Part shown: positions 43,479 through 64,000 of the stretch, piece after piece | Layout: each line of letters starts with the position of its first letter | Numbering within the stretch: the stretch's first letter is position 1 | IMG/VR virus record: IMGVR_UViG_3300003629_000001 | Strand: one strand, 5' to 3' | DNA from: a virus | Length of the DNA: 64,000 bases | Position numbers and translations under genes: made by a program | The notes under the pieces: generated by a model | Databases searched by the model: none | Told to the model about the DNA's origin: nothing | The model's input: only the letters and a program-made list of their open reading frames with translations

Positions 43479-45518
43479 ATGAGCCAGCGTATAGAGAATC
43501 AGATACTCGCGGAGCGAGGATACGTGTGGCTCTCGAAGCAGGAGAACGAGTGGATTCCATACGTCGGGCCTGACGGTGGTGAAGGATGGCAACGTGTCGG
43601 TGACGACGAGGTGCGATACCAGCAACGACCGCCGGGAGAGACAGCCCAAGGTGTCGAAGAGAACTACTGGACTGACGATTTCGGCGCTGACGCACTTACC
43701 GAGTTCCTTTCAGAACGTCTTTCTGACGAGGATATGGGTCGTATCGGAGCGCGGGTTCAGGACGCCGCTGAAGCCATGAACTCCGATATAGACACCGAAG
43801 CAGGGTACGTATGGGGTCGTCTTCAGCACCGAGAAGAACGGTTCAATCAGCATTTGGGGGACGCGCCGGAAGGTGCGATAGTCGATTTAGTAGACAGTAT
43901 GCTTGGACGGCGAGAAGCGAAGTTCGCCCAGCGTCAGGAAATGGACGAACTCGCCATGCTGGTCGAAGATAACTCCGACATGGGAACCCGCGACAAACTG
44001 AATATCAGTGAAGCGGTGCGTGAAGTTCAGGACGATACCGACCTGACCGAAGAGGAACTTCGTCAAGACCTTTACGAAATGGTCGAAGACGCGGATATGC
44101 CAGCAGAGTACGTGCTGGATAACGCTGGCCTGAACGCGTGGAAAGACAGCAAACGGGCCGAGTGGCGAGACGAGAATCTGACTGGTGAAGACGCGATAGA
44201 AGTACCCGAAGGCCACGAAGGCGATATTACAGAGAGTGACGTTTTCGACGCGCTCAATCACACGTCGCTTTCCGGGTTCCAACTTCCGCTAAATGACCAC
44301 GACCCGATTCCCGCTGTCGCACAGGCTATGGAAGACCAGTTCGGGGACGACCCGAATAAGATGTACGACGAGATAGAAGCGTTCAACGGTGCTCTCGAAG
44401 GCATTCTCAAGCCGTTTAGTCAAACCAGTACGAACGCGCCGGAACACATGAACCCACAGAATGCCGACGAGGTGGGGAAACTGGATAAGTACACCGATAA
44501 GACCGGGCGGTCGTCTAGTTCCATGTTCGTTGCGAAAGGTGTCCCCGACGAAGACGGGAACAAGCGCGACCTGTATATCACGAACACCAACCGGAATCGG
44601 GAAGGGGCCTACGCACAAGACGACGCCGACGCCAACCGACAGATTCTCGGGTCGAACGGATTCCAAGCGGCGGGTTTTGATTCCCCTGACTCGTACCATG
44701 AACCGGGAGAGTTTTGGGCTGTCGAAGAGGCCCCCGGTGATACTGCTGACGAATTTCACGTCGAAAATGACCTTGACAATCCCGTAGAGCAATTCGCTGA
44801 ACTCGGAGCGGCGGCGGCTGTTCTCGGTGCATGGGACATTCACGAAGGGAACGTATTCATCCACGACGGCGAGTTCGTTCCAGTTGACATGGACTTGGCT
44901 GGTGCTGAACTTCACCACAGCGCCGACCACACGTTCAATCGGTATAACGCTGATTTGAATGGGTTCATGGGTCTATTTCCCCGTATGCAACGACTCTTTG
45001 ACCGCATGGACGGTGGTGATACTATCGACTTTGACGAGATAAAGCAAGCCACGAAACGTCGGGTGGCTGAAATGGGTGAGACGGGAGAGGCCAAGGAAAT
45101 CGCTGAAGCCGGAAAGAGCGACATTACACACTCAATCGGTCGGAACGTTGAAGCCAACGTTAGGGCTATTGAGAACCAGAACTACTTCGAGCGTTACCCA
45201 ACTGACGTGTTGGGAGTAAACGGATACGACGAAATGAGTGATTTCCGCGAGGGTCAGGTCGTAGAGGTGACAGAAGACGACCGAGAGCAAAGGAGTCAAG
45301 AGTTCGAGATTACCGAGACATACGACGACCACGTTGAAGTGACCGCCCTCGAAGACGGTGCGATTCTCGGTGAAGGTGAGCGGTGGAACGTTCACAACCC
45401 CGGTGAGATAACAGAAATCATCGACAGTGGGGGCGACGAAGAGGGCGACCCACCTGACCCGATTGACGCGCTCATGGACGAACTGGACGAGCGGCTGGAA
45501 GACGGTGATAGCGAATGA
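43479..45518 (+). CDS. tagged polyvalent protein 1: tag + helical region + HipA/PI3K-like kinase + SH3-like domain
   Basis: Tag at 43551; WDIHEGNVF...VPVDMD at 44835. Confidence 0.75.
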   Translation: MSQRIENQILAERGYVWLSKQENEWIPYVGPDGGEGWQRVGDDEVRYQQRPPGETAQGVEENYWTDDFGADALTEFLSERLSDEDMGRIGARVQDAAEAMNSDIDTEAGYVWGRLQHREERFNQHLGDAPEGAIVDLVDSMLGRREAKFAQRQEMDELAMLVEDNSDMGTRDKLNISEAVREVQDDTDLTEEELRQDLYEMVEDADMPAEYVLDNAGLNAWKDSKRAEWRDENLTGEDAIEVPEGHEGDITESDVFDALNHTSLSGFQLPLNDHDPIPAVAQAMEDQFGDDPNKMYDEIEAFNGALEGILKPFSQTSTNAPEHMNPQNADEVGKLDKYTDKTGRSSSSMFVAKGVPDEDGNKRDLYITNTNRNREGAYAQDDADANRQILGSNGFQAAGFDSPDSYHEPGEFWAVEEAPGDTADEFHVENDLDNPVEQFAELGAAAAVLGAWDIHEGNVFIHDGEFVPVDMDLAGAELHHSADHTFNRYNADLNGFMGLFPRMQRLFDRMDGGDTIDFDEIKQATKRRVAEMGETGEAKEIAEAGKSDITHSIGRNVEANVRAIENQNYFERYPTDVLGVNGYDEMSDFREGQVVEVTEDDREQRSQEFEITETYDDHVEVTALEDGAILGEGERWNVHNPGEITEIIDSGGDEEGDPPDPIDALMDELDERLEDGDSE

Positions 45519-48202
45519 CAGAAATTGTTCGAGTCTACGACCGTGACGGTGGCGAGTTGGAAGCAAAGGCTGACGTAGGCCCTGACGGACGCCTGATTCG
45601 GGGTGACGAAGACTTTGCTGAAATCGCTACTCGGTTCCTCGAAGAGCGGAGCGTGGACGAGATACTGACGTATCTGGACGGCCCGCATATGCTGGCTATG
45701 GCGATTGACGTGGACGGCTTAGACTACGACCCCGGCCTTCAAGAGAAAATGGAAGGTCGCCGCGCCGCAAAAGAGACACACCACGTTCCTCACAGTACCC
45801 CTATTGAGAATACCGAGAGAACTCATTGGCTCACCGAACCCCGACTCGGGAAAGTCGGTTGGTACGACAGTGATACCGGTGCGTTCCTCTACAGGGGGGC
45901 CAGCGCCCGCGTGAGTGAGTTGCTGAAGAGTGAAGGCCCCACCAGCGGACTCGAAGAGACACAAACGTCGCTGGTGGACTGTCAGGGGCCGTCCAGCAAC
46001 CTTCTCAAGCAAGACGACGGTCAGTGGATTCCGTACAAGGGGCCACAGGAAGGCGAGGGGTGGCAACAGGTCGGTTCCGGCGAGGTGCGATACCAACAAG
46101 AGCCACCCGGTGACGTAGCGGACGGACATGAGGCCGACCACTGGAAACAACGCTGGCCGGAGATTGAGGGCGCGGAGTGGAACGAAGACGTTCCACACCC
46201 GATTGACATGAAAGAGGAAGACGCTCTTCTCTTCGTCAATCGGAACGGCGAGTCGGAAGTGGGCCGTTTCGAGAGTGCGACATTCATTCGTGACGAGAGT
46301 TGGGATAGTGCGAAGACAGGCGTCACTCTCGCTGACGGTCGTCAAGTTCTGACTGACGACATAGCCGCTCATGCGGATATGACTATGGCGGTCGAACCAC
46401 CGAGTCTTCACGGTGACGAAGAGTGGGGTGACGCCCCCGGAGTCTATTCAGATTACATTCCGTGGAATCTCGTTCACTTTGTGGATTCTGACGGTGAAGA
46501 GCGAGTGGCTATGGTCGAAGGACACGCCGACGACCGGGGTGCGGTGAAGGTGCAAACCAACGAGGGATACACGGTCGTTGACCCGAGTAACATTACTCAC
46601 TACGCCGAGGTTGACCAGTTCTATAACGGCGCTTACGAAGTGCTGGATAGTCCCTTCCGTGGGATTCCAGAGATAGAAGACAACGAACAACCCCCGGACG
46701 AGAACTTTGCACAGCGTGTCGGAGTCACGGCTGACGACGTGAACGCCGCGTTCCGAATGGTTTTTGCACCCCACCTTGTGAGCGTGCTTGAAAACGAAAT
46801 CGAAGAGGGTGGGTACGACGCTGACGACCCGGACGACATAATTCAGGCTATCATCGACGTTCGTGGGTCTGAAGACGACACGACGTGGCAATCATTCAAG
46901 CGAGAACTTCGAGGGCGTTCTGTTGGAATCGGGAAGAGCCGGGCGGAACGTATTGTTAACGAAGCCTTTGCTGGCGAAACCCCCGACCCGAGTTTCGCTG
47001 TTCGTCAGGATATGGACAGGATGGACGACCCGGAAGAGTGGCTGAAACAAGCCGCCAAATTCGCTCACGAAGACGAGTTCGTGTCTATCGCTTCGTTACA
47101 GGACGCGGTGGACGAGTGGAAGGGTGACGGTGTTCCATTCAATCTCAAAGGAATCCACGACTTCGACGGTGAACCCGACGAGGTGGTAGCCCTATCAGAA
47201 ACCGGGACGAACACCGGAATCTCCGCCGGGGCCATGTTCATTGCGGACTGGCCGGACGGTAGTAGGGCGTTCGTCACTCGAATCAAGGATAAGGAAACGG
47301 GCCGACTTGTGTCTAACGACCACATGGAAACGTCCGAAGAGGCCGAACGGGCTATGACTGGCTTCGGGATTCAGAACGAACTGGCTCAAGACAACGAGTC
47401 GATTCAGGTTCCCGACCACACGTACTCAATGGACGAGTATTTCAGCGTGAAGGGCGCTCCCAACGACGCGATACTCGCTGACCAGTTCCTTGAGACGTTC
47501 CCGAGTCAGGACATGGAATTGCCGGACGGCCCGCCTGATACGGATATTGTAGAGTCGGTTGGTGCGACGGTCGAAGACGTACAACAAGCGTTCAGTGAAA
47601 CGGTATATCCGGGCTGGGAAGACCACAACGAGACGAAACAAATCTTCCACAGTGACGACAATTTGGACGAAGAGAACTCACAGGACTGGGTGGCTGTCGC
47701 CAAAATCCGTTATGATAAACCCGACCCACGAATTTGGAACGAGTTCGCCCGTGAACTCGCTGGGTCAGCCTACGAAACGCCGGTTGAACGTGAGACGTTC
47801 ATGGACATGGCGTTCGGAGCGGTCATGGCTGGCAACAAAGATATGCACTCGAATAACGTTATGGCGGATAATGAGGGAACCGTCTACCCAATCGACTTGG
47901 ACTTTGCTGGGTACGACATGACCAACAGCCGCAATTTGAGCGCCGCTATCGGGAAACTCGTCAGTACCGGTCAGGCACTCGGAATCGAACCCAGTGAAGA
48001 GTTCGAGGATAAGGGGAACCCCGACGCTTTTGACGACTCGCAACACCCATTAGCACACGAAATCCTCGCGTATATCCACGACAACGCGACCGAGGAAACT
48101 ACGGAGAAGGTTCGGAGTGGGAATCCGATGTGGCGAGACGGTGGGGCTGACAACGTTGCTCGGAACGCGGAAGCGGCAAAGAACGGAGAACTCGAACTAT
48201 GA
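45515..48202 (+). CDS. tagged polyvalent protein 2: DGP module + tags + SH3-like domains + kinase
   Basis: DGPH at 45677; tag at 46025; NKDMHSNNV...YPIDLD at 47840. Confidence 0.75.
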   Translation: MTEIVRVYDRDGGELEAKADVGPDGRLIRGDEDFAEIATRFLEERSVDEILTYLDGPHMLAMAIDVDGLDYDPGLQEKMEGRRAAKETHHVPHSTPIENTERTHWLTEPRLGKVGWYDSDTGAFLYRGASARVSELLKSEGPTSGLEETQTSLVDCQGPSSNLLKQDDGQWIPYKGPQEGEGWQQVGSGEVRYQQEPPGDVADGHEADHWKQRWPEIEGAEWNEDVPHPIDMKEEDALLFVNRNGESEVGRFESATFIRDESWDSAKTGVTLADGRQVLTDDIAAHADMTMAVEPPSLHGDEEWGDAPGVYSDYIPWNLVHFVDSDGEERVAMVEGHADDRGAVKVQTNEGYTVVDPSNITHYAEVDQFYNGAYEVLDSPFRGIPEIEDNEQPPDENFAQRVGVTADDVNAAFRMVFAPHLVSVLENEIEEGGYDADDPDDIIQAIIDVRGSEDDTTWQSFKRELRGRSVGIGKSRAERIVNEAFAGETPDPSFAVRQDMDRMDDPEEWLKQAAKFAHEDEFVSIASLQDAVDEWKGDGVPFNLKGIHDFDGEPDEVVALSETGTNTGISAGAMFIADWPDGSRAFVTRIKDKETGRLVSNDHMETSEEAERAMTGFGIQNELAQDNESIQVPDHTYSMDEYFSVKGAPNDAILADQFLETFPSQDMELPDGPPDTDIVESVGATVEDVQQAFSETVYPGWEDHNETKQIFHSDDNLDEENSQDWVAVAKIRYDKPDPRIWNEFARELAGSAYETPVERETFMDMAFGAVMAGNKDMHSNNVMADNEGTVYPIDLDFAGYDMTNSRNLSAAIGKLVSTGQALGIEPSEEFEDKGNPDAFDDSQHPLAHEILAYIHDNATEETTEKVRSGNPMWRDGGADNVARNAEAAKNGELEL

Positions 48203-50751
48203 TAGTGTTTTACCGTCTCGAAGGTCGGGACTACAACGAAATCGGGCGTGTCGAAGACGGCGAAATCGTAGACGGCGAAGAGGAACTGGCTGGTATCGTT
48301 CACCCGCCGAACCTCTCCGACGAAGACGAACTACTCGCCGCTCATGACGGCCCACATATTCTCGCCCAAATGGAAGACGAGTCGCCCGGCGAGGGTGGTA
48401 CTGACGCTAATTCTGATAGGGGTACTGAAAAGTGGGTTCCATACACCAACGGCGACGAACGTGGGTGGATTAGTGCCAGCACTGGCGAGAAGAAATTCAC
48501 CGAGGAGGCCCCCGGCCCGATAGTGAAAGGCTTCGAGGAACAGGCGGAAAACTGGACGGAAGTAAAGACGTTGAATAAGGAGTGGATTCCGTATCAGGGG
48601 CCGCACGGGGGCGAAGGGTGGCAAGAGGTGGAGACTGGTGAGGTTCGCTACGTCGAAGAGCCGCCGGGGCGAGTTGGGACAGGTGATGGCGCTCCGCCCA
48701 GTGACGGCATGACGCCTGAAGAACGGGCGTGGCTGGAAGAGCATGGCGACCCGGAAGCACTGTCGGAGTTGGAAGAAGAGGCCCCTGACGGCACGACAGA
48801 AACGAGTGAAGAGATTACGTGGGACAACGTAGCCGCCGGTGACGAAATCGCCTACTACGATGACTACGGCGAACTACAGCAGGGAGAGGTAACTGCTGTT
48901 GAACAGGACGCGTTCGGTGTGATATGGGTTCAGGACGGTCACGGCAAATCGCCAGTCGAAGAAGAGGATTTCATTGGCACGCCGGACGACAAGATTGGCG
49001 ACGGACTCGAAGCACCTGACCACGCTGGCGCTGACTGGTTCGACAATAACCTGTTCTACGGTCAGACTATCAAACTCTACAACAAAAACACCGACATGGT
49101 GGAATACGCGGACGTAGAGAGTATCTTCGTTGCGGGTGGTGAAATCAACGCTGTCGAACTTGAAGTTCAGAATCAACGTGGATTTGGCGACCTTATTACT
49201 ATCACGAACGACGACATAGACTGGCATGACCAAGACGATAACGGGAAGTACGAAATACGAGAGACGAGTCGCTGGTCGGATTTAGAAAAGGACGAGCAAA
49301 TTGACGCTGTGAGACGTTCTTACCGTGAAAATACTCGTCTTGAGACGATGGGTCGGGCTACGCGGCAAAATCTGAATGACGATATTTCTGAAGATATTAT
49401 CCCCTCGTTTAAGGACATGAACGTCGCCCGTGAGACATTCAAGTCACTCTTCAAAATCGGGAACAAGGTATCCCGAGCGAGTTGTAGCGGAACGGGGAGT
49501 GTTTCAATCAAGGTGTCAGAACGAGCGCCTATCGACACGACGAGACACGAATTTGGACACGCTATCGTCAGTTCGTTCGGATATAATTACAAGAATCGTT
49601 ACAAAAATAGCAATTTCTCTGACGAGAAGTACAGGCGGCGTCCGACGAATTTGTCTCACGAGTATCATGACCTGAAGACCCGGTACGATACCATAGCGTT
49701 CGATTTCAGCGAAGATTCAGATTTCTTTGCCCCCGAAGACTATATGCTTCAGGATACCGACAACGACGGCGAGTTTGTAGACTTTGATTTTGACGAAATA
49801 GAGGCTGGAAGGAACATATACATCGAGCCGTCCGATACCTTCATGTCGAATGAGTCATACGAAATTGAGTCAGTTGGTGAAATGGAAGACGGTAAGTTAG
49901 AAATCCACACCAGTATGGCTCAAGACGCCTATGTTGATAGAGAGGGGACTGTCTATCAGTACGATTCGTTCGGTGGTGGATGGGAAGAGGTTGGGGAAGC
50001 AACCGCATTCACTCAAGAGAAACTACCGCACGGATTCGACGCGTGGAAAGACGCTGTAGAGGAAGAGGTTCACGGAGAAACCGATTTGGAACAGAGGGAG
50101 TACGAGAATACCGAGGGTATGTCGCCCAAAGACGTGTTCGAGTCGGTTGATAAGGGCGACGTAGTTCGGTTCCAGCACGAAGACAAGACGATTCACCTTA
50201 TTGCTCAAGAGAAAGAAAACCTCTCTCAAGAAGACCGGCGTGATTATGAGTTCGTTCACCCCGGCGACGGTTCACAGTGGAATTTCACCGTACAGAGTGA
50301 CAACGGTGAACTTCAGTTCTCTGACCACATTGTTACTGGGTACGACGATACATACGGCGAAGAAGACGGGGACAGCCCGAACGTGGATAATCCTCTTGAG
50401 AACTGGGAAGGGTTTGAGCCAAACCCTGAAACCACTGAACAGAGAATAGATAATTTAGTGTCAGCCGTGAACCGTGCGTGGTACAAGCAAGCCAAAATGT
50501 TCGAGAACGACCCTGCTGATTTCGGTAACAGCGCTTACAGTATTGGGTCGGGATACTCGGCCACAAATGCTCAAGAGACAATGGCGAAAACTCATGAGGT
50601 TTTACAGAACGGCGACCAGTTGGCAACCTCGCATTTGATTGAAGAACATCCGTATCTGGTTGCGGCTTATGTAGAACTGTTTGAGCCGCACTTGTACGCT
50701 AAAAAGGCGATTCATCGTCATGGCGGGGAAGAGTACGGGATAAAAGTATGA
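48199..50751 (+). CDS. tagged polyvalent protein 3: DGP module + 2 tags + zincin metallopeptidase
   Basis: Tags at 48433 and 48583; HEFGH at 49546; YSATNAQETMA at 50554. Confidence 0.7.
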   Translation: MIVFYRLEGRDYNEIGRVEDGEIVDGEEELAGIVHPPNLSDEDELLAAHDGPHILAQMEDESPGEGGTDANSDRGTEKWVPYTNGDERGWISASTGEKKFTEEAPGPIVKGFEEQAENWTEVKTLNKEWIPYQGPHGGEGWQEVETGEVRYVEEPPGRVGTGDGAPPSDGMTPEERAWLEEHGDPEALSELEEEAPDGTTETSEEITWDNVAAGDEIAYYDDYGELQQGEVTAVEQDAFGVIWVQDGHGKSPVEEEDFIGTPDDKIGDGLEAPDHAGADWFDNNLFYGQTIKLYNKNTDMVEYADVESIFVAGGEINAVELEVQNQRGFGDLITITNDDIDWHDQDDNGKYEIRETSRWSDLEKDEQIDAVRRSYRENTRLETMGRATRQNLNDDISEDIIPSFKDMNVARETFKSLFKIGNKVSRASCSGTGSVSIKVSERAPIDTTRHEFGHAIVSSFGYNYKNRYKNSNFSDEKYRRRPTNLSHEYHDLKTRYDTIAFDFSEDSDFFAPEDYMLQDTDNDGEFVDFDFDEIEAGRNIYIEPSDTFMSNESYEIESVGEMEDGKLEIHTSMAQDAYVDREGTVYQYDSFGGGWEEVGEATAFTQEKLPHGFDAWKDAVEEEVHGETDLEQREYENTEGMSPKDVFESVDKGDVVRFQHEDKTIHLIAQEKENLSQEDRRDYEFVHPGDGSQWNFTVQSDNGELQFSDHIVTGYDDTYGEEDGDSPNVDNPLENWEGFEPNPETTEQRIDNLVSAVNRAWYKQAKMFENDPADFGNSAYSIGSGYSATNAQETMAKTHEVLQNGDQLATSHLIEEHPYLVAAYVELFEPHLYAKKAIHRHGGEEYGIKV

Positions 50752-51734: not shown

Positions 51735-51804
51735 TTTAACCGGTTCTTCCCGAAAGGTCTTACAGTAGGGGTATCAACAGTATTAACAAGAGGCCACTAT
51801 CCCC

Positions 51805-52602: not shown

Positions 52603-52607
52603 CTGTA

Positions 52608-55600
52608 ATGAGCCTGACCAAAGACCTTGCGGACGCACTCGCTGGTACGGTAGCCAAACAACACCCGGCTTTTCGGAGTAGTACCAACTGGCTTCCGTAT
52701 CGTGGCCCGCGAGGTGGGGAAGGGTACATCAACACCTACACCGGCGACGTAGTGTACGGAAGTGACCGGCCCGGTGGCGGGTGGGACAGTGACGGCGAGA
52801 TTGAGGTAGACGAGTCGTTCCGTGCCGCCCCTGACGGCTACGAGTGGGAGCGCCCACCGATGAACTACGACGTGAAAGACGAGATTGACGAAGCCAACCC
52901 GGACAACGTAGACGGCTTCCTCGAAGCGAAGTTCAGTGGCGACCAAGTTATCTACGAAGACGGTCAAGGTGAAGAGGCCCCGCACAGTTGGGGTCGCGTC
53001 ACTGGTGCGCGTGTGGATACGTACACCAATCTCGGTGGTCATGAAGTGACGGGTGTCGTTCTCGAACTTGAATCGGGTGACGACGTGCCATTAAATCGTG
53101 TCTTGAAGCACGTCAATACGTCACAAGACCCGAAATACGAAGCGTGGCAACTGGCCGACGACAATCCCCACGAAGACGATTTGGAAGACGTAAGCGAGAA
53201 AGTCTATCATTCGTTCTCTCACGACGAGTTCGAGTGGAAAGAGTACGCTGACTGGCGAAATGACGCCAAAACGCTCCCTGTTCTTTCTGAACATGGTGCT
53301 GACGATTTGTGGAAAGCCATGAGCGCGTACTTCGACCGTGAGTCCATGAACGACCTACGGGCGGATTTAGCCAGTTGGAAGAGCGACAGTGACCGTGGCA
53401 CTGGCCGTTACTCCGACATTGCGAAAGAGGTGTTCGAGATTGACGCGGTGTCTCGGGATAATCGCTACGGGGAAGAATGGGATACAAGCAACGAGGAAGA
53501 CTTTAAACGGGCGGTAGAAATTCTCTCTGACGCATCTCGTCGGTTTTACGAAGACCAGTACGAGAGCGACGACCTGTTCCGTGGAATCTCCCGACACGGC
53601 TTTCGGAGTCTCGTCAAGGGGTGGCTGGAAAACCCCGGCGCTGACGAGTTCGAGGTGGAACACAGGGCGCTCGCCAACTACTCCGCCGACCACCGGGTCG
53701 CCCGTGATTGGGCTGGGAATACGGTTGTCATTCAGCCGGATATTGACCCGGAAGACATAGTGCTGGCTATCGACGGCTTGAATTTCTCCGGTGTCCACAA
53801 CACGGAATCCGAGGTGCATATGCGGGGCGACCGGATTACCCTCAAGCCTGACGACGTGAAACTCAAGACACGCCGAGATACACAGGGTCGAACATCATGG
53901 CCGGAACGAAAGGCTGGGTTAAGCGAACCAGCCGAGAACTGGTCAGCGAACGACGCGGAGAACTTCAGTAGGGCTATCAGTCTAATCTACGACGACGAAA
54001 CGCCTGACGAGGAAACCGCGCTTCGCTTCCTACGTATCGCCAAGGCTCACGAAGACCACATTGAAGACAAACTAAACAGCGACCGCTTCAATTTCGAGCG
54101 CGACAGGTTCTTTACGACGGGAACCGCTGGCCCCGGTGAAGCCCACGGCGAAGTGATTGAGTGGGAAAACGAGTATCTGGACTTACTCGGTCGTATCGAA
54201 GCGGAACACGGCCTCAATCTATCCAGCGTAGAGAAGGCCGAGAATCCGCCCGGTTCGCCTGACGAGACGCCGGTTGTAGACTTGACCGAGGATTGGTTCT
54301 TGTCCCCGGAACACCGTGACGACCCGGAGAGAGCCGAGAAACAGGTACAGAACGTCATGGGCGAGTGGGTTCCGTACCAAGGCCCCCGAGGTGGCGAAGG
54401 CTGGCAACGGATTAGCGACCAAGAGGTAGTGTATCAAGACGACCCGCCCGGTGACGTAGTGGAAGGCGTCGAAGAGAACTTTTGGGAGCGCTACGGTGAA
54501 GGCGACGAGTCCCAAGACACCAGCGGATACTATGACGCTGACGAGTGGGACGACGCTTTTGAGGGCATGAATATTGCCGCTCCGTCTGACGTTCCCGAGG
54601 GGGCTGAAATCTACTATATCTCGTCGGTCGGTAATCACCACGAAGGACGCGTTGTGGGCTATGAATACGGTGAGAACATCGAAGGCGCTGACCCAACGCC
54701 CGCGTATCTCAAAGTCGTTGGTGACGACGGTTACGAAGCCTCTGTCACGGCTGACCAGATTCAAGAGATTACGGATATGCCGCATGAGGCCGAAGTACCC
54801 GAGTTCGAGTGGGATACAGATATTCCACCGATTAACGAACTACAGGAAGGCGCTGACGTGCTGTACGAAGGCGAGAACGGCATTCGTCGTGTTGGCGAAT
54901 ACGAACGTCCGACGTTCGTTCAGACGGAAGAAGGGACGTTTGGTGGTGTTGTTCTCGAAGACGGAACCGAGATTCGGCTACAAGATATGGTGGCCGTGGA
55001 CGAAGGGCCGGTTCCGCTTGAACCCCGAGAAGACCCCTTCGAGTTCGAGTCGGTGGTCAACGAGGGCGATTTCCGTGGATTCCGCGCTCCTGACGAGACG
55101 TGGGACAACCTACTCGAATTTACCCCGTTTGACGGCCTTGGCGAAGTTCCGCTGGGTGCGACGGTGGAGTTCGATACTCCGAAACTGAACGGAACGATTG
55201 AGGGTGAAGTGACTGGGTACATCGACTACGACGCGTCGATAGGCGAAACGAACTCGCTACGCGTCCAGACCGAAGACGATTACGTGGGAGAAACGACAGT
55301 AGGGCCGAGTAATTTCGTTCGATTCATTGGCCCTGAAGGCGACCAAGATTTATCGCTGGAAGAGTATCTGTCCAATCCGTTTGCACACGCTCACAAGGTC
55401 GAAGGCTCTCGGGAAGCCGGTATCACTGGCGGGAACACGACTGGGGAGAAAATGAAAATCGCTACCATGCCGGACGACTCGCTAATCTTTGCGACTCCGG
55501 TGGAAGCCTACAATCATATCACAACGGGCGTGGTTGATAGTGCGGCTGAAGCACGCGAGAACAATCTGAATAGCCCTATTATGATTGACCACCTCGGCGG

Positions 55601-56741
55601 GGGAGCGTGTAAAACACGAATCGTGGAAGGGCCGGACGGAGGTGAGTATATCGCTAAAGAGGGTATCGAAGGCGACGACTTGAGAAGCCGCCAGTGGTCG
55701 ATAGACGAAAACGACGACGCTGAACTTATGGACTCCCTCGCTCGCACTTCGGCGGCGGCGTTCTTTGTTGGCAATCAAGACCTTCACTCTCACAATATCC
55801 GGGTCAACTTCGATACACAGGAAGCGACTGTAATCGACCACGACGCCGCTGGTGGGAGTCATTTTGGTAGTTTCATGGACGTTAACAGAGTTGTCAACGA
55901 CCCGCTTAGTACCTCTCAAGTCGAAAACGAGATATACGATATTGCGCGGGATTATATGAGAGGCGACCTTGACGTTCCCGAGGAACTGAAAGGAACGAAC
56001 CACGAATCCTACTTCAAGGACGCCATAGACAAACTGGCGAACGACGAAAGCCATTCAGACCTATTTGAACCGTGGGGCGGCGACCCGCACAGTCTTCCGC
56101 GTCATGCGGATAGCATGGACGACTTTCAGGAAGGGCAAGAAGTGACAGTTCTGACGAGTGACGGACACGTTCGCACAGGAGAACTCACCCAGTTCTATCA
56201 AGGGACTTGGTATGGTGAGACGGACGACAACTACGAAATTTCGTTCGATATGCCGCACCACGTTCTCTCGTCCGAAGAGCCAAAAATTCCGATTGAACCG
56301 ACCGAAGAATCGGCGGCGCTCATGGACGCACTGGCTGACCGAGAGGATTCATACGACTCCTTAACCGACCTTGAACCCGGTATGGGTATCACGATTAATC
56401 AGGGGTTTAGCGACGAAGAGGTGCTGGTTGAAGAGGTGAAAACGGACGGCCCGGTGACTCAAGTAGAAGTTCGTCCGACTGACGGTGGCGACCCATTCCA
56501 CGTCAATCAGTGGGACGACGTAGTTCAGGTTGGACGGGAACGGAACTGGAATGGTGAGTTGGACGACCTAAACACTGGTGAAGAGATTCGGGTCGAAGAC
56601 GAAGACGGTGAAGAGATTAGCGGGACGTTCATGGGCTACGACGCTGACAGCGGAGAGGTAGAAATCCAAGACGCACCGGGACGGATTGTCACGGTGGACG
56701 CGCCACGTAACGTCCAGCGGTTGACGGGTGATTCAGAATGA
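52608..56741 (+). CDS. tagged polyvalent protein 4: tag + ART + tag + SH3-like domains + kinase + SH3-like domains
   Basis: Tags at 52689 and 54366; LFRG...NYSAD...ESE; NQDLHSHNI...VIDHD at 55779. Confidence 0.75.
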   Translation: MSLTKDLADALAGTVAKQHPAFRSSTNWLPYRGPRGGEGYINTYTGDVVYGSDRPGGGWDSDGEIEVDESFRAAPDGYEWERPPMNYDVKDEIDEANPDNVDGFLEAKFSGDQVIYEDGQGEEAPHSWGRVTGARVDTYTNLGGHEVTGVVLELESGDDVPLNRVLKHVNTSQDPKYEAWQLADDNPHEDDLEDVSEKVYHSFSHDEFEWKEYADWRNDAKTLPVLSEHGADDLWKAMSAYFDRESMNDLRADLASWKSDSDRGTGRYSDIAKEVFEIDAVSRDNRYGEEWDTSNEEDFKRAVEILSDASRRFYEDQYESDDLFRGISRHGFRSLVKGWLENPGADEFEVEHRALANYSADHRVARDWAGNTVVIQPDIDPEDIVLAIDGLNFSGVHNTESEVHMRGDRITLKPDDVKLKTRRDTQGRTSWPERKAGLSEPAENWSANDAENFSRAISLIYDDETPDEETALRFLRIAKAHEDHIEDKLNSDRFNFERDRFFTTGTAGPGEAHGEVIEWENEYLDLLGRIEAEHGLNLSSVEKAENPPGSPDETPVVDLTEDWFLSPEHRDDPERAEKQVQNVMGEWVPYQGPRGGEGWQRISDQEVVYQDDPPGDVVEGVEENFWERYGEGDESQDTSGYYDADEWDDAFEGMNIAAPSDVPEGAEIYYISSVGNHHEGRVVGYEYGENIEGADPTPAYLKVVGDDGYEASVTADQIQEITDMPHEAEVPEFEWDTDIPPINELQEGADVLYEGENGIRRVGEYERPTFVQTEEGTFGGVVLEDGTEIRLQDMVAVDEGPVPLEPREDPFEFESVVNEGDFRGFRAPDETWDNLLEFTPFDGLGEVPLGATVEFDTPKLNGTIEGEVTGYIDYDASIGETNSLRVQTEDDYVGETTVGPSNFVRFIGPEGDQDLSLEEYLSNPFAHAHKVEGSREAGITGGNTTGEKMKIATMPDDSLIFATPVEAYNHITTGVVDSAAEARENNLNSPIMIDHLGGGACKTRIVEGPDGGEYIAKEGIEGDDLRSRQWSIDENDDAELMDSLARTSAAAFFVGNQDLHSHNIRVNFDTQEATVIDHDAAGGSHFGSFMDVNRVVNDPLSTSQVENEIYDIARDYMRGDLDVPEELKGTNHESYFKDAIDKLANDESHSDLFEPWGGDPHSLPRHADSMDDFQEGQEVTVLTSDGHVRTGELTQFYQGTWYGETDDNYEISFDMPHHVLSSEEPKIPIEPTEESAALMDALADREDSYDSLTDLEPGMGITINQGFSDEEVLVEEVKTDGPVTQVEVRPTDGGDPFHVNQWDDVVQVGRERNWNGELDDLNTGEEIRVEDEDGEEISGTFMGYDADSGEVEIQDAPGRIVTVDAPRNVQRLTGDSE

Positions 56742-59700
56742 CAGTAGTTGTATATGAACTGAACGACGACGCGGAGTACGAGGAACTGGGTAGCCATACC
56801 GACCAAGAGGCCGTGGAGAACGACGACCTACTGGATATTTTTCCTGAACAGGTGTGGCAAGACCACTCCGACGAATGGCTCTCCGAGCGGATTGACGGCC
56901 CTTACGTCATGGCCGCAATTCAGGACGAAGACTCCGAGACGACAGAGAAAATCAGTATGTGGACACCCTACGTCGGCCCGAACGGTGGCGAGGGCTACCA
57001 ACATATGCTGACTGACGAAGTTCGTTACGTGGACGAGGAACCCACTGACGACGAAGCACCCGGCAATGACGTTGACGTAGACGAACCCGAGAGCGGTGAA
57101 CTGAACGAAATGACCGGGATTTCGGACGCGTCGTATATTGAAGACAATCTTCCGGTCACGGCGACGTGGGAGAATGACGACGGTGAATCATTCGTTGGTC
57201 AAATCGAAGAGGTGGATTACGGCGGCTTTGACGAGAAGTTTGTAATTGCCGCTACCAACGGACGGCGCTACGAGGTGAATGGTGACGATTTGACCGGGTA
57301 TATCGAACCCACGCCGGAATACAACCCGGAAAGTGACGAGGAAGACGGACGGATTCGGGACGGATTCGAGCGGATAAAGGAAAAACTTGGCGAGGGTGTG
57401 ATTCCACCGCGTCCAACTCCCAATATGGGTAATGGTGGCTCTCGTCCCGAACAGAGCGATTTCCGACAAATCGCGTCGGAAGACGACGCCGAGAAACTAC
57501 AGCAGATTATCGACACTGGCGACACTGGGAATATTCAGGTCGGAATCGAAGCCGTCGGTGACGGAGTAGACTACGGCCCGTGGGACGCTGATACGGATAA
57601 TCTCAATTACTTCGACGGCGGTCAGTTCACGAACATCGACGTGGAAATGCCGGTCGAAGATTTCCTTGCCACACAAACGGATATGTTGTCGTCTGACCGG
57701 AACCATCCACAAGAAGCCTACGAGTCGTTCCACCGAGTTCGGACTGACGACGTAGAAGAGTACGCCGAGGTGTTACAGAACGAACCGGGTGAAATGCCCA
57801 TGCCGTACATTGAGTTCGGTCGCAACGGCAATATGCGGAACTCACAGGAAGGCCGACACCGCGCTCTCGCGGCGCGTATGGCTGGGTTAGATACCATGCC
57901 GGTTCGGTTCGTTCTAAACCCCGACCGCGACGGAAAAGGCGCTGAAGACCGTGTTGACTGGGGTCAGGATTTGAGTAAGCCGGTGGAGAAACGCACAAAG
58001 TGGCGTCCATATCTCGGCCCGCGTGGTGGTGAAGGCTGGATTAAGCCGTTCAGTTTCACCGACGACAAAATTGTCTACGACGAAGAACCACCGGGTGAAG
58101 TATCGCCGGAGTACAGCGAGGATTACTGGCACGACCGCCCGTCTCCGGTCAACGAAGATATTGTTAATTTGGTGGATTCGCACCTCGAAGGCGTTCGAGC
58201 GCGTCCGTACAAGTTGGACGAACCGACAGCGGATTTCTTCGAGGAAGGACTGGAAGCCGGGTATCACCCGAACGCCGTTTCCGAAGCCGCTGAATGGAAA
58301 CTGAAAAGCATGGAAAAGGAGATTGGGGACGGTGGGCGACTCGAAGAGAACGACGTTCAGAAGGTACTCCGAGACGCCGCTACCCAGTTCCTTGACCGCC
58401 AAACCGAGCAAGAGATAGAGATAGAAGGTGGCAAACGAGGTGGTGGGGTTATCTCTCTCGGTGAAATTGACAACAACTTCAAACGAGACTGGTGGGATAA
58501 CTTCGAGTCTGAAATAGGCTACACCGACGACCAAATGACGAACGAGAAGCCTGCTTACAGTGCTATTCGCAACTGGTCTATCACCAGTAGTATGTTCAGT
58601 CAGTCTACAGCGCCACTAATCAAAGCGGCCATGCGAGAGAGCGACAACGATTTCATTCCGGTCAACGGCGAAGAGGTGCGTGAGACAGACGTAACCGACC
58701 GAGAAATCGAACACGTTCTCGAATACAAAGAGGCCATGACTGAACTGTACCGGAGCGTCTACGGTGACACGGTTCCGTGTTTCCGTGGCATTGACGGTCA
58801 GAGTAGTCAAATCGACGGAATGCGCGAAGATATACAGGAAGGCAAGGGTATCGAACTTCCTGAAGCCACCCTCTCTTCGTGGGCGACGGAACCCGGAACC
58901 GCCATGCGATTCGCCGGGAGCATCCACACTGACGGCTACAGCGAAGGTGGTGTCGTGATTCGTCAAGAGGTTCCGGTTGAACAACTATTCGTGACTGGCG
59001 ACACTCACCCCGGCCTTCTTAATAACGAGAACGAACTTGTTGTTAACGCGCCGGAACCCGAGACGCGCTACGAACCCGACAACCTGATTCTCCCGAGTGA
59101 GACGACAGCACTCGAACAGGCGGTGTGGGCGGCGGAACGTGCTAATAGGGATACTGACGTGAGCGAGGAAGCCGCGAAGGCTGTCCAGCGAGCGCTCCTT
59201 TCCAAACAGGAAATGAACCAGTACGCTTCAATCGCAATCGAAAACTACGATTGGTTCCGTCAGACTGTCGGTGAGCAAACCCAACCCGACATTAAGTCGA
59301 AAGAGTGGATTCCGTATGAAGGGCCACGGGGCGGTGAAGGGTGGCAAAATACGGAAGACCGAGACGATATTCGATATGGGCTGGAAGACCCGCCCGGTGA
59401 AGTGGCCGAGGGGTACGAAGACATGGCCGAAGACTGGGGGGCGGGAGAAGACGCTGTAGAAATCCCCGAGAAGTTCGAGGGAGAGTACGCCCCGGAAGAC
59501 ATTACGCCGATTCCCGGCGACCCTGCTGAATGGGGTGACGAGTTCCCAATTAGTGAAGGACAGACACTACTCGGTCAAAATTGGGAATGGGATATAGAAA
59601 ATCTCTGGTTCCAAGGTAGCGATACACACGTTCCTGAACCTCGAATGGAATTAGCAATTCCGACTGGTGTTAGTCACAAATTTGGTTACGTATCCGATTC

Positions 59701-62700
59701 CGTGAAGTTACAGGGTATGGAACCCGGTTGGTTCAAGAATCCGGCTATCCCCAGCAAGCAAAACAAGCAAGAGTTCGTCGGAGTCGTCGGAGAACCTGAA
59801 CCACGAGATATGAGTTTCAACCCGACTGGTGAAGCGGCGAATGCTTCGTTTGATTTAGACGAAGCGGCTGAAAGAATGAGTCAGGAGATTCGTGACCGCA
59901 ATTCGTGGGAAAACAAAAAGGCTGGAATTTACGCGGCTGAACTAATAGAAGAGCATGACCCGAGTTACGAAACGCTACTCGCTATCACTCGTTACGGGCT
60001 GGAATCAAATGGTCAGAGTATAAACGAAGACCGCGATATAGACGACGCTCAAGAAATTGTCTTGGACGGTATCGACCAACACCTTGACAATGAAGCACCT
60101 GACCACCCCACGCTCAAGGGCAAACTGTCGTTAAGTCACGCTGACCCCGAATTGACCGAAGATTTCATGAGTCGTATGACACCCGATACCCGAGAGACTG
60201 TCAATACGGCTATGGGTGAATGGATTCGTGGTCAGGGGAGTATGGTGGACGAGTACACACTTCCAATTTACCGACTGGCCGCTCACACCTACGAGAACGA
60301 TTTCTACCCGACGCGTGGTGACGTAGGGAAACTCATTGCGGAAGCCGACGACGTGGAAGCCGCTGACAGTCTCGAAGTTCGTCAAGAGAGGCTGGAACGC
60401 TATCGTCAAAAGACCGTAGAGACGTTCCGTGAAGTGTTCGGTGATACCGTTCCGGTGTTTCGTGGCTACGACCCCGGTGAACAATCCAAAGGTAAAGAAG
60501 CACGGGAAGCGCTACAGGCTGAAGACGCCCCGTCAGAGATAGAGATTCGTAATGGTGTGGCGAACTCATGGTCTACAAACCCGACCGTCGCATTTCAGTT
60601 TTCGACGTGGAATACCGAAGATTACCCCGGTATTGTTGTCCGCCAAGAACTCCCCGTTGAACAAATATTCGGGTCGTCTGATACCACTACCAGTGGTCGG
60701 TCTGACGAAGCGGAAATCGTTGCTGGCAATCCTGAAGAGTACACTAACCACAGCCGCGACGACGTATTCCTTCCCGAAGAGTTCGACCCGATTGAGCAAA
60801 TGCGGTGGGCGCTTTCGGGTATCGAAAATGACGCCAGTGAAGAGGAAGAGAAGGCTGACGGGGAAACGCTATCACTTGACTGGGAACTCGAATCGGTTGA
60901 CTGGCTACGTCGTTACCGGAAGATGGAAGACGCACTCACGAAAGAAAACTGGACTCCTATAGACGTAGGCGACCAGAGAGGCTACCAGCACGTCGTCAGC
61001 GGAGAGACGATAGTATCCAAGGCTGGTATCCCGTTCAGCAACACGGCGCGTCAGGCGGGCCACACGCCGCTGTCAGCGGTGGTTATGGACTCCGACGCAC
61101 TGGGGAAAGAGTGGGTTCCATATCACGGCCCACGGGGCGGTGAAGGGTGGCGGAATACAACGACCGAGAATATCCGCTACGGACTGGACGAAGCACCGCG
61201 CCCAGCCGAGAACGACCCCGACGAACTCACCGAAGAGAACATCGAAGAGGCTGATATTCAACAGTCGTTCGGCCTCATGCAAACTACAGCCAACGACTTG
61301 GTAGAAGGTGAGAAACTACACTTCGAGGTTCAAGGCCACCCCTACGAAACCCGCGTTCAGGAAGTGACCGACGACGCGATTCACGCGATAGACACCGAGA
61401 CGCACCGCGAGTTCGAGATTCCGACCGACGAGCGAGGAATGGCCGAAAGCGGGCTAACACTGGCTTCGCCACAAGCGGTATTCTTCGGCCACGGTATCGC
61501 TGGGTCGGAGTCGTCGTGGCTACCCGAGGAAGACGAACCGAGTCAGATAGAACTCGAAGCCGAAGCGCTTCGTTCCGCCGCGTCCACCGACGGATTCGGT
61601 GATACCAGTTACATTGAAGGCTTCGCCGCACGGGCGAGTGAACTCGGTGCTGGACGTGACGAGATTACCAACGCGATTCACGGCGCTCTCGAAGAACACC
61701 CCGCACTGAACACGGATTTGGCCGACGAGATTTACGAGAACGGTCAGCGGCTATTGGAAATCGAAGAGTCGCTGACGGACAAGTCACTCGCTCGCTCCTA
61801 TCCCATTACCCCTATCAGGACTATGCGGAAGGAGTGGATTCCGTACCGTGGCCCACAGGACGGAGAGGGCTGGCAAAACGTCAACAATCCCGACGACATT
61901 CGATACGGACTCGAAGACCCGCCCGGTGAAGTGGCTGAAGGCTACGAAGAACAGGCGGAAGACTGGGGGCCGAGTAGCGACGAGGAACCCGACCGAGTTC
62001 AGGGCGCGACCCTCGTAGACTACAACATTCCGGGGAGCGACAAGGACATTCAAGTCCCGAAAAACTTCACGGCTGACGACTTGAAGAACACCATTCGGCG
62101 GTTCCGAGACGACAACGAAGGCGACCTACTCACGGAACTGGCGAACGTCGTTCAAATGCAAAACGACGGCAACCTAAACGACAAGATGGACGTGCTTCAT
62201 GGCACGGCTGAAGTGCTGGGGAACCACCCGGAGATTATCGACCAGTACAACGACCTGCTACACGAAGAGATAGCCGATACTCCAAACGCCAACTTCGACG
62301 TACCATTCGGCTTCGACGGTGTGGACGTTCACAATATGCTGGAAGACACCTTTGGCCCCCACAGTGAGATTGTGGGTGAACTCGAAGATATGGTTCTGTT
62401 CGGGGACGTGGACGAAGAAAAAGCCGACAACTGGATTACCGCCGCCGAAGGCTGGATTCGTAACTACGGCGACCGGAAAATGGCGGACAAGTTCAAGGAT
62501 ACCATAGCCGACGCGGAGTTGGCGAATCCGTTCTCAAACACCGACGAGTACGCCGCACAGGAAGAGATTAGCGACGACCTAAACCCAGCAAAAGCGTCCC
62601 GAGTTGTGCCTATTTCGGATACTGAAGCGTCTACGGGTATCAGCGCTGACAGTATGTTCATAGCCGAGTACGACGACGGACACCGAGCATTCGTCACCAA

Positions 62701-63319
62701 CACCAGTCACCACCGCTCGGAGCGGATTGACGAGGTACGGAATCAAGGCGAGGAAGACGCCGAGCGGGCTATGGCTGGCTACGAAGCCTTCAAGGCCGCT
62801 GGTATGGACGTTCCTCGCCACGAACGGCTCAAGACGGAATACTGGACAGTTGAAGAGGCTGACGGTCAACCAGCGAGGGAGTGGGGCGGTGAACCGGACG
62901 AAGCCATGCGTGACCAGTTCGCTAAACTCGGCGCTGTCGCCATGCTCTCGGGGAACTGGGATATGCACGGTGGGAACGTCTTCGTGACCGAGAACGGTGG
63001 TCTGATTCCAGTTGACCTTGACTTGTCGGGTCACGATATGCAATCCCGCGACTGGAAGCACACGTCGTGGGGGCGACTCAAGAGTTTGGGTCGAACGCTG
63101 AATATGTACGAGGTGAGAGGTGACGATAACGAAGTTCTCGAACTCAAGCGAGACGTGGCCCGTGCGACACAGGAACTAATCGAAGACGGAACAGCCGACG
63201 ATATAAAGAGTATGGCGTCCAACGTGGATAATAAGGATATTCAAATGGCTATCGAAGAGAACGTCTTCGCCGCCAAAGGTGGGCGGCTCTACGACGACAG
63301 AGTGCGGGGTGACGAATGA
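56738..63319 (+). CDS. tagged polyvalent protein 5 (2193 aa): DGP module, 6 tags, ParB-like domain, 2 ARTs, kinase
   Basis: Tags at 56960, 58001, 59306, 60950, 61112, 61835; EGRHR at 57848; FRG/SSW/ENE and FRG/SWS/EAE; NWDMHGGNV...PVDLD at 62960. Confidence 0.8.
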   Translation: MTVVVYELNDDAEYEELGSHTDQEAVENDDLLDIFPEQVWQDHSDEWLSERIDGPYVMAAIQDEDSETTEKISMWTPYVGPNGGEGYQHMLTDEVRYVDEEPTDDEAPGNDVDVDEPESGELNEMTGISDASYIEDNLPVTATWENDDGESFVGQIEEVDYGGFDEKFVIAATNGRRYEVNGDDLTGYIEPTPEYNPESDEEDGRIRDGFERIKEKLGEGVIPPRPTPNMGNGGSRPEQSDFRQIASEDDAEKLQQIIDTGDTGNIQVGIEAVGDGVDYGPWDADTDNLNYFDGGQFTNIDVEMPVEDFLATQTDMLSSDRNHPQEAYESFHRVRTDDVEEYAEVLQNEPGEMPMPYIEFGRNGNMRNSQEGRHRALAARMAGLDTMPVRFVLNPDRDGKGAEDRVDWGQDLSKPVEKRTKWRPYLGPRGGEGWIKPFSFTDDKIVYDEEPPGEVSPEYSEDYWHDRPSPVNEDIVNLVDSHLEGVRARPYKLDEPTADFFEEGLEAGYHPNAVSEAAEWKLKSMEKEIGDGGRLEENDVQKVLRDAATQFLDRQTEQEIEIEGGKRGGGVISLGEIDNNFKRDWWDNFESEIGYTDDQMTNEKPAYSAIRNWSITSSMFSQSTAPLIKAAMRESDNDFIPVNGEEVRETDVTDREIEHVLEYKEAMTELYRSVYGDTVPCFRGIDGQSSQIDGMREDIQEGKGIELPEATLSSWATEPGTAMRFAGSIHTDGYSEGGVVIRQEVPVEQLFVTGDTHPGLLNNENELVVNAPEPETRYEPDNLILPSETTALEQAVWAAERANRDTDVSEEAAKAVQRALLSKQEMNQYASIAIENYDWFRQTVGEQTQPDIKSKEWIPYEGPRGGEGWQNTEDRDDIRYGLEDPPGEVAEGYEDMAEDWGAGEDAVEIPEKFEGEYAPEDITPIPGDPAEWGDEFPISEGQTLLGQNWEWDIENLWFQGSDTHVPEPRMELAIPTGVSHKFGYVSDSVKLQGMEPGWFKNPAIPSKQNKQEFVGVVGEPEPRDMSFNPTGEAANASFDLDEAAERMSQEIRDRNSWENKKAGIYAAELIEEHDPSYETLLAITRYGLESNGQSINEDRDIDDAQEIVLDGIDQHLDNEAPDHPTLKGKLSLSHADPELTEDFMSRMTPDTRETVNTAMGEWIRGQGSMVDEYTLPIYRLAAHTYENDFYPTRGDVGKLIAEADDVEAADSLEVRQERLERYRQKTVETFREVFGDTVPVFRGYDPGEQSKGKEAREALQAEDAPSEIEIRNGVANSWSTNPTVAFQFSTWNTEDYPGIVVRQELPVEQIFGSSDTTTSGRSDEAEIVAGNPEEYTNHSRDDVFLPEEFDPIEQMRWALSGIENDASEEEEKADGETLSLDWELESVDWLRRYRKMEDALTKENWTPIDVGDQRGYQHVVSGETIVSKAGIPFSNTARQAGHTPLSAVVMDSDALGKEWVPYHGPRGGEGWRNTTTENIRYGLDEAPRPAENDPDELTEENIEEADIQQSFGLMQTTANDLVEGEKLHFEVQGHPYETRVQEVTDDAIHAIDTETHREFEIPTDERGMAESGLTLASPQAVFFGHGIAGSESSWLPEEDEPSQIELEAEALRSAASTDGFGDTSYIEGFAARASELGAGRDEITNAIHGALEEHPALNTDLADEIYENGQRLLEIEESLTDKSLARSYPITPIRTMRKEWIPYRGPQDGEGWQNVNNPDDIRYGLEDPPGEVAEGYEEQAEDWGPSSDEEPDRVQGATLVDYNIPGSDKDIQVPKNFTADDLKNTIRRFRDDNEGDLLTELANVVQMQNDGNLNDKMDVLHGTAEVLGNHPEIIDQYNDLLHEEIADTPNANFDVPFGFDGVDVHNMLEDTFGPHSEIVGELEDMVLFGDVDEEKADNWITAAEGWIRNYGDRKMADKFKDTIADAELANPFSNTDEYAAQEEISDDLNPAKASRVVPISDTEASTGISADSMFIAEYDDGHRAFVTNTSHHRSERIDEVRNQGEEDAERAMAGYEAFKAAGMDVPRHERLKTEYWTVEEADGQPAREWGGEPDEAMRDQFAKLGAVAMLSGNWDMHGGNVFVTENGGLIPVDLDLSGHDMQSRDWKHTSWGRLKSLGRTLNMYEVRGDDNEVLELKRDVARATQELIEDGTADDIKSMASNVDNKDIQMAIEENVFAAKGGRLYDDRVRGDE

Positions 63320-64000
63320 CCGTCACCTTCTACGAACTCGGTGAAAACGACTACACCGAAATTGGTCGTATCCACGACGGAGAAATCGTAGACGGCGAAG
63401 ACCAACTGGTCGCAATCGGCGCTGACCAGTTCGCGGACAACGAAAAGAAACTACTGAACGTCTACGATGGGCCGTACATCGTTGCTGGAATTGGGACGCC
63501 TAATACCCTTACTCAAAAGTCGGACAAGGCACTTCGGAAGAGCGTCGAAACAGTCTTCAAAGACTGGATTCCCTACGAGGGGCCACAGGGCGGGGAAGGC
63601 TGGCAAAACACCCTGACAGGCGAAATCCGCTATCAGGAAGGGAAGCCGAGTGGCGCGGGAAGTGACGCCGACGTTACTGTCCCCGGCAACTCTACGATAC
63701 AGACTGTCTCGGCGGCTATCACGTCAGTCCTCGGCGCGACAGTCATGCAATCGCTCAAGCAACAGGCGACCGGTGGCGGTGGGTCATTCAACCCACAGAC
63801 GTTCGTGACCGCCGCCGCCATGTATATCGCACAGACTGGTAAGGGGTCGCTCGGAGAACTACAGGAAGCGTTGGATACCGAAGCCGAGAGCGAACCCGAA
63901 GACGCTCAAGACGTGACGATTCAGACCGAGAGTGGCGAAATCGAATCTACGACTCAAACGGGTGTCACCGACGTAACGAGCGCGATTACACAAGTCTCGT
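63316..64000 (+). CDS. tagged polyvalent protein 6 (runs off the window; absent from the ORF track)
   Basis: ATGA overlap; manual translation MTVTFYELGENDYTEIGRIHDGEIVDGEDQL...YDGPYIVAG...VFKDWIPYEGPQGGEGWQNTLTGEIRY. Confidence 0.8.
   Translation, partial: MTVTFYELGENDYTEIGRIHDGEIVDGEDQLVAIGADQFADNEKKLLNVYDGPYIVAGIGTPNTLTQKSDKALRKSVETVFKDWIPYEGPQGGEGWQNTLTGEIRYQEGKPSGAGSDADVTVPGNSTIQTVSAAITSVLGATVMQSLKQQATGGGGSFNPQTFVTAAAMYIAQTGKGSLGELQEALDTEAESEPEDAQDVTIQTESGEIESTTQTGVTDVTSAITQVS

Follow-up and report, generated by a model that had tools for sequence, protein, structure and literature searches.

A lysine-centred linear motif in the linkers before the repeated tags of acidic head proteins in haloarchaeal tailed viruses: a candidate processing site

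The 64,000-nucleotide stretch of viral DNA analysed here (IMG/VR record IMGVR_UViG_3300003629_000001, hereafter the window) comes from an uncultured haloarchaeal tailed virus that is kin to HVTV-1 (Druskaviridae). It encodes a row of very acidic open reading frames (ORFs) in which a tag of about 35 amino acids recurs in 13 copies, two of them degenerate, with up to six copies on a single polypeptide. A Lys residue precedes each of these tags and forms the core of a short linear motif, approximately [V/T/L/I]-[E or other]-K-[A/S/E/D/Q], which is located in the flexible linker directly N-terminal to the tags of acidic polyvalent head proteins in haloarchaeal tailed viruses. The motif itself is established; from its form we infer that it may be cut, and the enzyme, the scissile bond and the location inside the capsid proposed below are likewise predictions drawn from sequence.

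The tags of the window were located by a regular-expression scan with the pattern W.PY.GP.GGEG[WY]. An earlier reading of the window, made from its letters alone (the sequence-only reading), had listed 13 sites with a Lys before a tag and had proposed that a Lys-specific prohead protease cuts there. All 13 sites exist as written (Table 1), with the nearest Lys one to 11 residues before the tag Trp, and the enrichment of Lys above background to which that proposal was tied is real and very strong. A Lys lies within 11 residues upstream of 13/13 tags as opposed to a fraction of 0.30 for all positions of the same ORFs (binomial p 1.3e-7), and within two residues of 7/13 tags against a background of 0.063, while the comparison set, the Trp residues of the window outside tags, gives 26/91. 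The Lys share of the tagged proteins of the window is 3.2%. Since the tags of the window are paralogues, the test was repeated on proteins from a tag-profile search of 1.84 billion representative proteins, which returned 556 matches at E <= 1e-3; the analysis of relatives covers the best 150 of these 556 matches, with 317 Trp-anchored tags. The acidic set, defined by an Asp plus Glu content of at least 20% and with the window's own proteins left out, comprises 100 representatives and 188 tags. A Lys is present within two residues of 55% of these tags (6% expected), within six residues of 87% (16% expected) and within 11 residues of 94% (27% expected). When one tag per protein is counted, 87% still have a Lys within six residues, and when the tags are clustered at 60% identity, 140/158 clusters have the Lys (p ~1e-90). 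Arg is not enriched and is depleted where it would adjoin the tag, being found at -1 or -2 in 4% of the acidic set compared to 10% expected. Inspection of 69 non-redundant tags on JGI hypersaline metagenome contigs likewise revealed a Lys a few residues upstream in nearly all of them. A cause at the level of the DNA, such as a Shine-Dalgarno-like AAGGAG sequence or internal starts, was considered and ruled out: both AAA and AAG serve as Lys codons and start codons are not consistently present, which means that the signal resides in the protein and not in the DNA.

Where an acidic tag lacks a Lys at both -1 and -2, the residue is found between -3 and -11 in 87% of cases, compared to 22% expected. 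Alignment on the Lys (taken as P1) instead of the tag brings out V, T, L or I at P3, Glu or Ser at P2, and A, E, S, D or Q at P1'. Where the Lys is at least four residues from the Trp (n=56), P3 is V, T, L or I in 39/56 cases (V 15, T 9, L 8, I 7), P2 is Glu in 21/56, and P1' is D, A, Q, E or S, with no hydrophobic residue and no Pro. The six 'far' sites of the window conform to the motif (LSK/Q, LLK/Q, VAK/Q, AEK/Q, TEK/I and LTK/E). The context of the motif thus travels with the Lys, independent of the distance to the tag. In half of the acidic tags the Lys stands in a fixed register (-2), with E, S or A at -1.

The position of the Lys relative to the fold of the tag was read from an AlphaFold model, which was based on an alignment of 70 sequences comprising the tags and 20 upstream residues, with tag 9 of the window as its first sequence (mean pLDDT 75). 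Residues 1-20 form a low-confidence linker with a pLDDT of 53-60 (block means 53 and 60), after which comes a three-stranded sheet modelled with confidence (block means 85-89), its first strand running from residue 20 (position -1). As the first strand begins at -1 in the model, Lys(-2) would be the last residue of the linker, at the edge between linker and domain. A Foldseek search with the tag model found no significant relative, and WW domains were among its weak matches only. Lys(-2) does not covary with Glu(+10) of the tag, which ruled out a salt bridge between the two, and the presence of the Lys is independent of the Glu in GGEGW. In P0151, an orthologue with 86% identity, the linkers are only 68% identical, yet all six tags retain their nearest Lys; at site 10 it is shifted by one residue (TKEN to NEKN). 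Site 5 is retained in P0021, a 93% orthologue.

The tag family extends to less acidic members (Asp plus Glu below 18%), which are classical polyvalent proteins with three to four ART-PolyVal (PF18760) domains each; tag-bearing relatives also hold RelA/SpoT, sigma-70 and helicase domains. In the less acidic members Lys is not enriched before the tags. Instead, 37% of their tags have h-R-[M/L/F]-[A/S] at a distance of up to 13 residues, compared to a background of 2.3% and to 1/186 in the acidic set, and the spacing of this motif also varies (IRMSS-W, VRMASDSNP-W). Two mutually exclusive junction motifs in the same place are the pattern expected of a site that is read by a lineage-specific trans-acting factor. 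A separate observation concerns the architecture of the less acidic proteins: in P0004, P0007, P0017, P0039, P0047, P0058, P0100 and others the tag alternates with ART-PolyVal domains, and a longer conserved peptide, which reads N.G.FDP...NIRMS(S/T)-W or VRMA...NP-W, stands before every tag. In view of its Met, one may ask whether internal starts or former gene starts are involved (compare the MSEW N-termini described below).

It is proposed, with a probability of about 0.4, that the Lys motif is a proteolytic processing site which is cut by the head maturation protease and releases tag-cargo units. The polyproteins would enter the prohead whole, where the head maturation protease, whose gene lies past MuF and outside the window, would become active and cut at or next to the motif Lys. 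The products would be units that each start with a tag followed by enzyme cargo, which may be ADP-ribosyltransferase-like, kinase-like or other. The scissile bond could lie after the Lys or one to two residues later, which for the -2 class would be right before the tag Trp. Regarding its form, the motif fits a cleavage site well: it comprises three to four residues with a hydrophobic residue or Thr at P3, its spacing is variable, it is located in a linker, and it is specific to a lineage. N-terminal tags that follow a leader of at least 19 residues have the Lys in 17/18 cases. MSEW-type tags at true N-termini lack it, which implies that the tag works without Lys.

Several observations weigh against cleavage. 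Foremost among them, leaders of no more than 10 residues keep the Lys in 4/6 cases (e.g. MNKDEW, MSEQLNKEW, MHKRREW and MDALATETKKW). Leaders of 4-10 residues leave nothing to cut off, yet they keep the Lys, which would not be expected of a pure module separator and favours a role in the function of the tag itself. It is mainly for this reason that the mechanism of the sequence-only reading, which is well matched by the form of the motif, is held to the probability given above. In P0151 the Lys is not conserved significantly better than the residues around it, although the numbers are small and the orthologues found, at 86-93% identity, are too close for this comparison to be decisive. A loose version of the motif matches about 8% of the Lys residues in unrelated (non-head) ORFs of the window, so that the motif alone cannot define sites. 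The scaffold and major capsid protein (MCP) of two relatives, L030 and L011, have no excess of the h-x-K motif, and tblastn searches with the tag and the 2193-aa ORF against cultured phages found no tag-bearing virus.

The prohead protease had been expected downstream of the array, and the relatives bear this out, as homologues of head maturation proteases follow the arrays in HVTV-1, L005, L030 and L011; the corresponding gene of the window virus lies outside the window, so that such a gene has been read in relatives only. Their gene order is arrays, then MuF, protease and MCP. In HVTV-1 the same interval is occupied by gp113, a MuF protein and gp115, followed by the head maturation protease (gp119) and the MCP, and gp113-115 are without the tag. 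The protease of the relatives matches only PHROG 'head maturation protease' families. For the HVTV-1-type enzyme, the annotation is that of a head maturation protease with an acidic, scaffold-like tail fused to it, and Pfam assigns it to no peptidase family. In HVTV-1 the motif fits 3/10 Lys residues of the MCP leader and 11/36 of the protease/scaffold protein (14/46), compared to 8% in the non-head ORFs of the window. The literature on ChaoS9 and HFTV1 gives no cleavage sites, and a literature search for the HK97 cleavage site found nothing. The HK97 protein gp5 is cut after a Lys (Lys103/Ser104), and a Lys at P1 would then not be unusual for this class of protease. Two further observations were made on the head proteins of the relatives. 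The scaffold-like tail of the head protease at L030:7502-8938 and in L011 (minus strand) is rich in Lys (5-9%) in an otherwise Lys-poor proteome and contains repeated EDEKS peptides, and the capsid protein beside the protease/scaffold ORF in L030 and L011 contains 1.4-2.2% Lys, its N-terminus bearing a conserved GGLMEK-ATF.

A rather unlikely, if substantial, alternative is that the Lys motif is not cut at all and serves as an N-terminal extension of the tag which aids the binding of a partner, be it the scaffold, the inner capsid surface, the portal or DNA, while the polyproteins stay whole. Such a role would account for the persistence of the Lys in leaders of 4-10 residues, which leave no segment to be removed, and for the fixed -2 register with E, S or A at -1 in half of the acidic tags; it also has a precedent in polyvalent proteins of the N4 vRNAP type, which are packaged uncut (PMC5512222). 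As the MSEW-type tag works without Lys, the residue may only modulate binding. However, a binding extension is difficult to reconcile with a spacing of 1-11 residues and a P3/P2/P1' context that moves with the Lys, with the location of the Lys in a low-confidence linker outside the fold, and with the lack of covariation with residues of the tag. Furthermore, Arg does not replace Lys, and an unrelated motif is found at the same place in the less acidic relatives.

The sequence-only reading had overlooked a conserved zincin motif inside the array itself. In the window, its two parts (Table 1) are split by an insert of about 290 aa, and YSATNAQE follows HEFGH by about 330 residues, whereas the relatives have a compact form. 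HExxH is invariant in 8/8 homologues of the N-lobe, and the helix motif YSxTNAHE..A is kept in about 25 homologues, each of which has an upstream HExxH at a gap of about 60 to about 330 residues. A second type of zincin (HExxH ... Y..N..E.VAE) occurs 18 times in the 150 best representatives, both acidic and non-acidic. A zincin is present in every array examined, namely in ORF 48199-50751 of the window and in L030, L011 and L005, and in the L005/L009 lineage the domain is located directly N-terminal to MuF. The Lys motif might be cut by the array's own zincin (HExxH ... YSxTNAHE) and not by the prohead serine protease, in cis or in trans, before, during or after packaging, in the way proposed for the MPTase domains of polyvalent proteins. 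The conservation of the HExxH and NAHE motifs and the recurrence of zincins across arrays speak for this possibility, and Iyer et al. 2017 predict that zincin-like MPTase domains process polyvalent proteins (PMC5512222). It is nevertheless improbable. The zincin region has no match in Pfam peptidase models, the PDB sequence search or ESM Atlas clusters, and the AlphaFold model of the compact form was unusable (pLDDT 41) and does not confirm the fold. The specificity of thermolysin-like gluzincins is usually read at a hydrophobic P1', as opposed to the A, S, E, D or Q of the motif. In addition, N4 vRNAP, ArdC and TraC1, all of which have such domains, are transferred without being cut (PMC5512222).

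Doubtful to a similar degree is a broader scheme, in which the tag and its upstream motif would form a two-part 'dock-and-cut' signal that extends from bacterial polyvalent proteins (h-R-M-[A/S]) to haloarchaeal viruses (h-E-K), with the WW-like tag docking a peptidase and the linker motif being scissile. If this were true, the tags would mark where giant effector polyproteins come apart, instead of or besides capsid targeting, and the switch of motif between lineages would track a changed specificity of the protease. Covalent chemistry at the Lys, such as a modification, or cross-linking to a component of the capsid, appears very unlikely: the strict preference for Lys over Arg, the exposed linker and the ADP-ribosyltransferase-like and kinase-like modules in the same proteins (PF18760 in the relatives) would suit it, but nothing specific favours it, the hydrophobic-P3 context is typical of protease sites and cross-linked cargo could not be ejected. 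Finally, a functionless Lys that owes its presence to chance, composition or inheritance during tag duplication (the tags are paralogues, and KEW could be passed on as a block) can be dismissed, as the enrichment survives both the restriction to one tag per protein and the clustering into 158 clusters at 60% identity (p ~1e-90), the Lys is kept while its position and neighbours drift, and the tagged ORFs are otherwise poor in Lys (2.4-4.0%).

Processing at the Lys motif by a head maturation protease would have close counterparts in bacteriophages. The internal proteins and Alt of T4 carry a capsid-targeting sequence and are cut by the prohead protease gp21 at (L/I)-x-E, and the head proteins of phiKZ and SPN3US are cut by gp175 and gp245, respectively, the short gp245 motif having been measured in SPN3US (PMC10052503, PMC3012670). 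Like the cargo of T4 and phiKZ, the array of the window is encoded in the head module and its enzyme cargo includes modules of the ADP-ribosyltransferase-like type; a short targeting element is adjoined by a motif of three residues in which P3 is hydrophobic or small and P1 is charged, and the protease gene belongs to the same module, here as seen in relatives. Unlike in these phages, P1 would be Lys and not Glu, the tag of about 35 aa folds into a three-stranded mini-domain and is present up to six times per polypeptide, the host is archaeal and cleavage is predicted. The motif is, moreover, N-terminal to the tag, which would therefore remain attached to the cargo and not be cleaved off. With polyvalent proteins (PMC5512222) the array shares giant multi-enzyme proteins, swappable modules, an embedded candidate zincin motif and an adjacent MuF, but the ORFs of the window match no Pfam model. 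A term search of Iyer et al. 2017 (PMC5512222) found no mention of the tag, the Lys or the R-M-A/S junction motif. Short cleavage codes in head cargo processed by prohead proteases, and polyvalent proteins as such, are thus already known in kind, whereas what is new is a Lys-centred motif that is tied to a folded, repeated tag and is near-universal in proteins of the haloarchaeal-virus type, with R-M-[A/S] taking its place in less acidic relatives.

If the motif is indeed cut, it would give archaeal tailed viruses their first predicted rule for the processing of head proteins, and a 20-30 kb row of giant ORFs would become a list of about 15-18 discrete packaged enzymes, each tag-first. One tag family with two lineage-specific junction motifs would also connect polyvalent proteins to capsid maturation in a way that can be tested. 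In practice, the motif would set the boundaries for the expression of single effectors and supply peptide targets for the metaproteomics of hypersaline viromes.

Table 1 Features of the window. For the tag sites, the start coordinate is the Lys codon, a slash follows the Lys, and the negative number is the distance of the Lys from the tag Trp
Feature	Position	Strand	Junction	Lys	ORF	Remarks
Large terminase	38000-39457	+				~54% identity to HVTV-1 counterpart
Portal	40025-42184	+				~54% identity to HVTV-1 counterpart
Tagless Lys site	43311-43343		EEK/DDPCWEGY			motif not fitted
Acidic ORF	43479-45518	+
Site 1	43536..43664	+	WLSK/QENE	-5	43479-45518	tag 1
Acidic ORF	45515-48202	+
Site 2	46007..46138	+	NLLK/QDDGQ	-6	45515-48202	tag 2
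Acidic ORF	48199-50751	+				polyvalent, with candidate zincin peptidase: HEFGH ~aa 449-453 (~nt 49543-49557), YSATNAQE ~aa 785-792 (~nt 50551-50574)
Site 3	48430..48546	+	GTEK/W		48199-50751	degenerate half-tag (WVPYTNGDERGW)
Site 4	48577..48696	+	TLNK/E	-2		tag 4
Acidic ORF	50748-51734	
Acidic ORF	51805-52602	
Acidic ORF	52608-56741	+
Site 5	52656..52802	+	TVAK/QHPAFRSSTN	-11	52608-56741	tag 5
Tagless Lys site	54228-54245	+	VEK/AEN		52608-56741	aa 541; motif-conforming Lys at tagless border
Site 6	54339..54479	+	RAEK/QVQNVMGE	-9		tag 6
Acidic ORF	56738-63319	+
Site 7	56948..57073	+	TTEK/ISM	-4	56738-63319	tag 7
Site 8	57998..58114	+	KRTK/W	-1		tag 8
Site 9	59300..59419	+	IKSK/E	-2		tag 9
Site 10	60941..61063	+	ALTK/EN			degenerate half-tag
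Site 11	61106..61225	+	ALGK/E	-2		tag 11
Site 12	61829..61948	+	TMRK/E	-2		tag 12
Acidic ORF	63316->window end	+
Site 13	63559..63678	+	TVFK/D	-2	63316->beyond window end	tag 13

The large terminase and portal genes immediately upstream place the array in the head module. The portal gene is followed by an HNH gene, a DUF192 gene and then the row of very acidic ORFs, in which Asp and Glu together make up 22-24% of the residues. The large acidic ORFs have no match to Pfam or to an annotated PHROG family; R-S-E ART-like and D.H..N kinase-like modules were read from their sequence. The Lys content is 2.4-4.0% in the tagged ORFs, compared to about 3-7.5% in most other ORFs of the window. The DUF192 protein (42720-43475), encoded between the portal/HNH genes and the array, carries DPCWEGY...VPNCVP as a C-terminal motif, with matches to several PHROGs whose function is unknown.

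In addition to the 13 sites before tags, two tagless Lys sites had been taken to bound other modules. Both are present, but only VEK/A fits the wider motif; EEK/DDPCWEGY falls outside it because of the Glu at P3. The two degenerate half-tags (W.PY..GD.RG[WY]; 48433-48546 and 60950-61063) are each located about 50 residues before a canonical tag and have an upstream Lys of their own. Many tags have a recurrent (D/E/N)-W-(L/I/F)-(R/H) peptide 12-25 residues upstream, both in the window (60890-60950, 59240-59300 and 54290-54340) and in L011, L030, P0019 and P0043. In some relatives this peptide is the N-terminus of a separate gene (M.I...ENQ.EWIR...K-W), and the border of a unit in some genomes seems to lie before it.

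A search of IMG/VR with the window portal found no relative; tag-bearing sequences in the same database are limited to three near-identical fragments, each of which ends inside the protease gene. Near-identical copies of parts of the array are found in independent metagenomes, on the JGI hypersaline metagenome contigs L028, L017 and L007. Of these, L028 extends about 4 kb beyond the end of the window and contains two further tags there, which follow TFGK-DE and SVSK-N.

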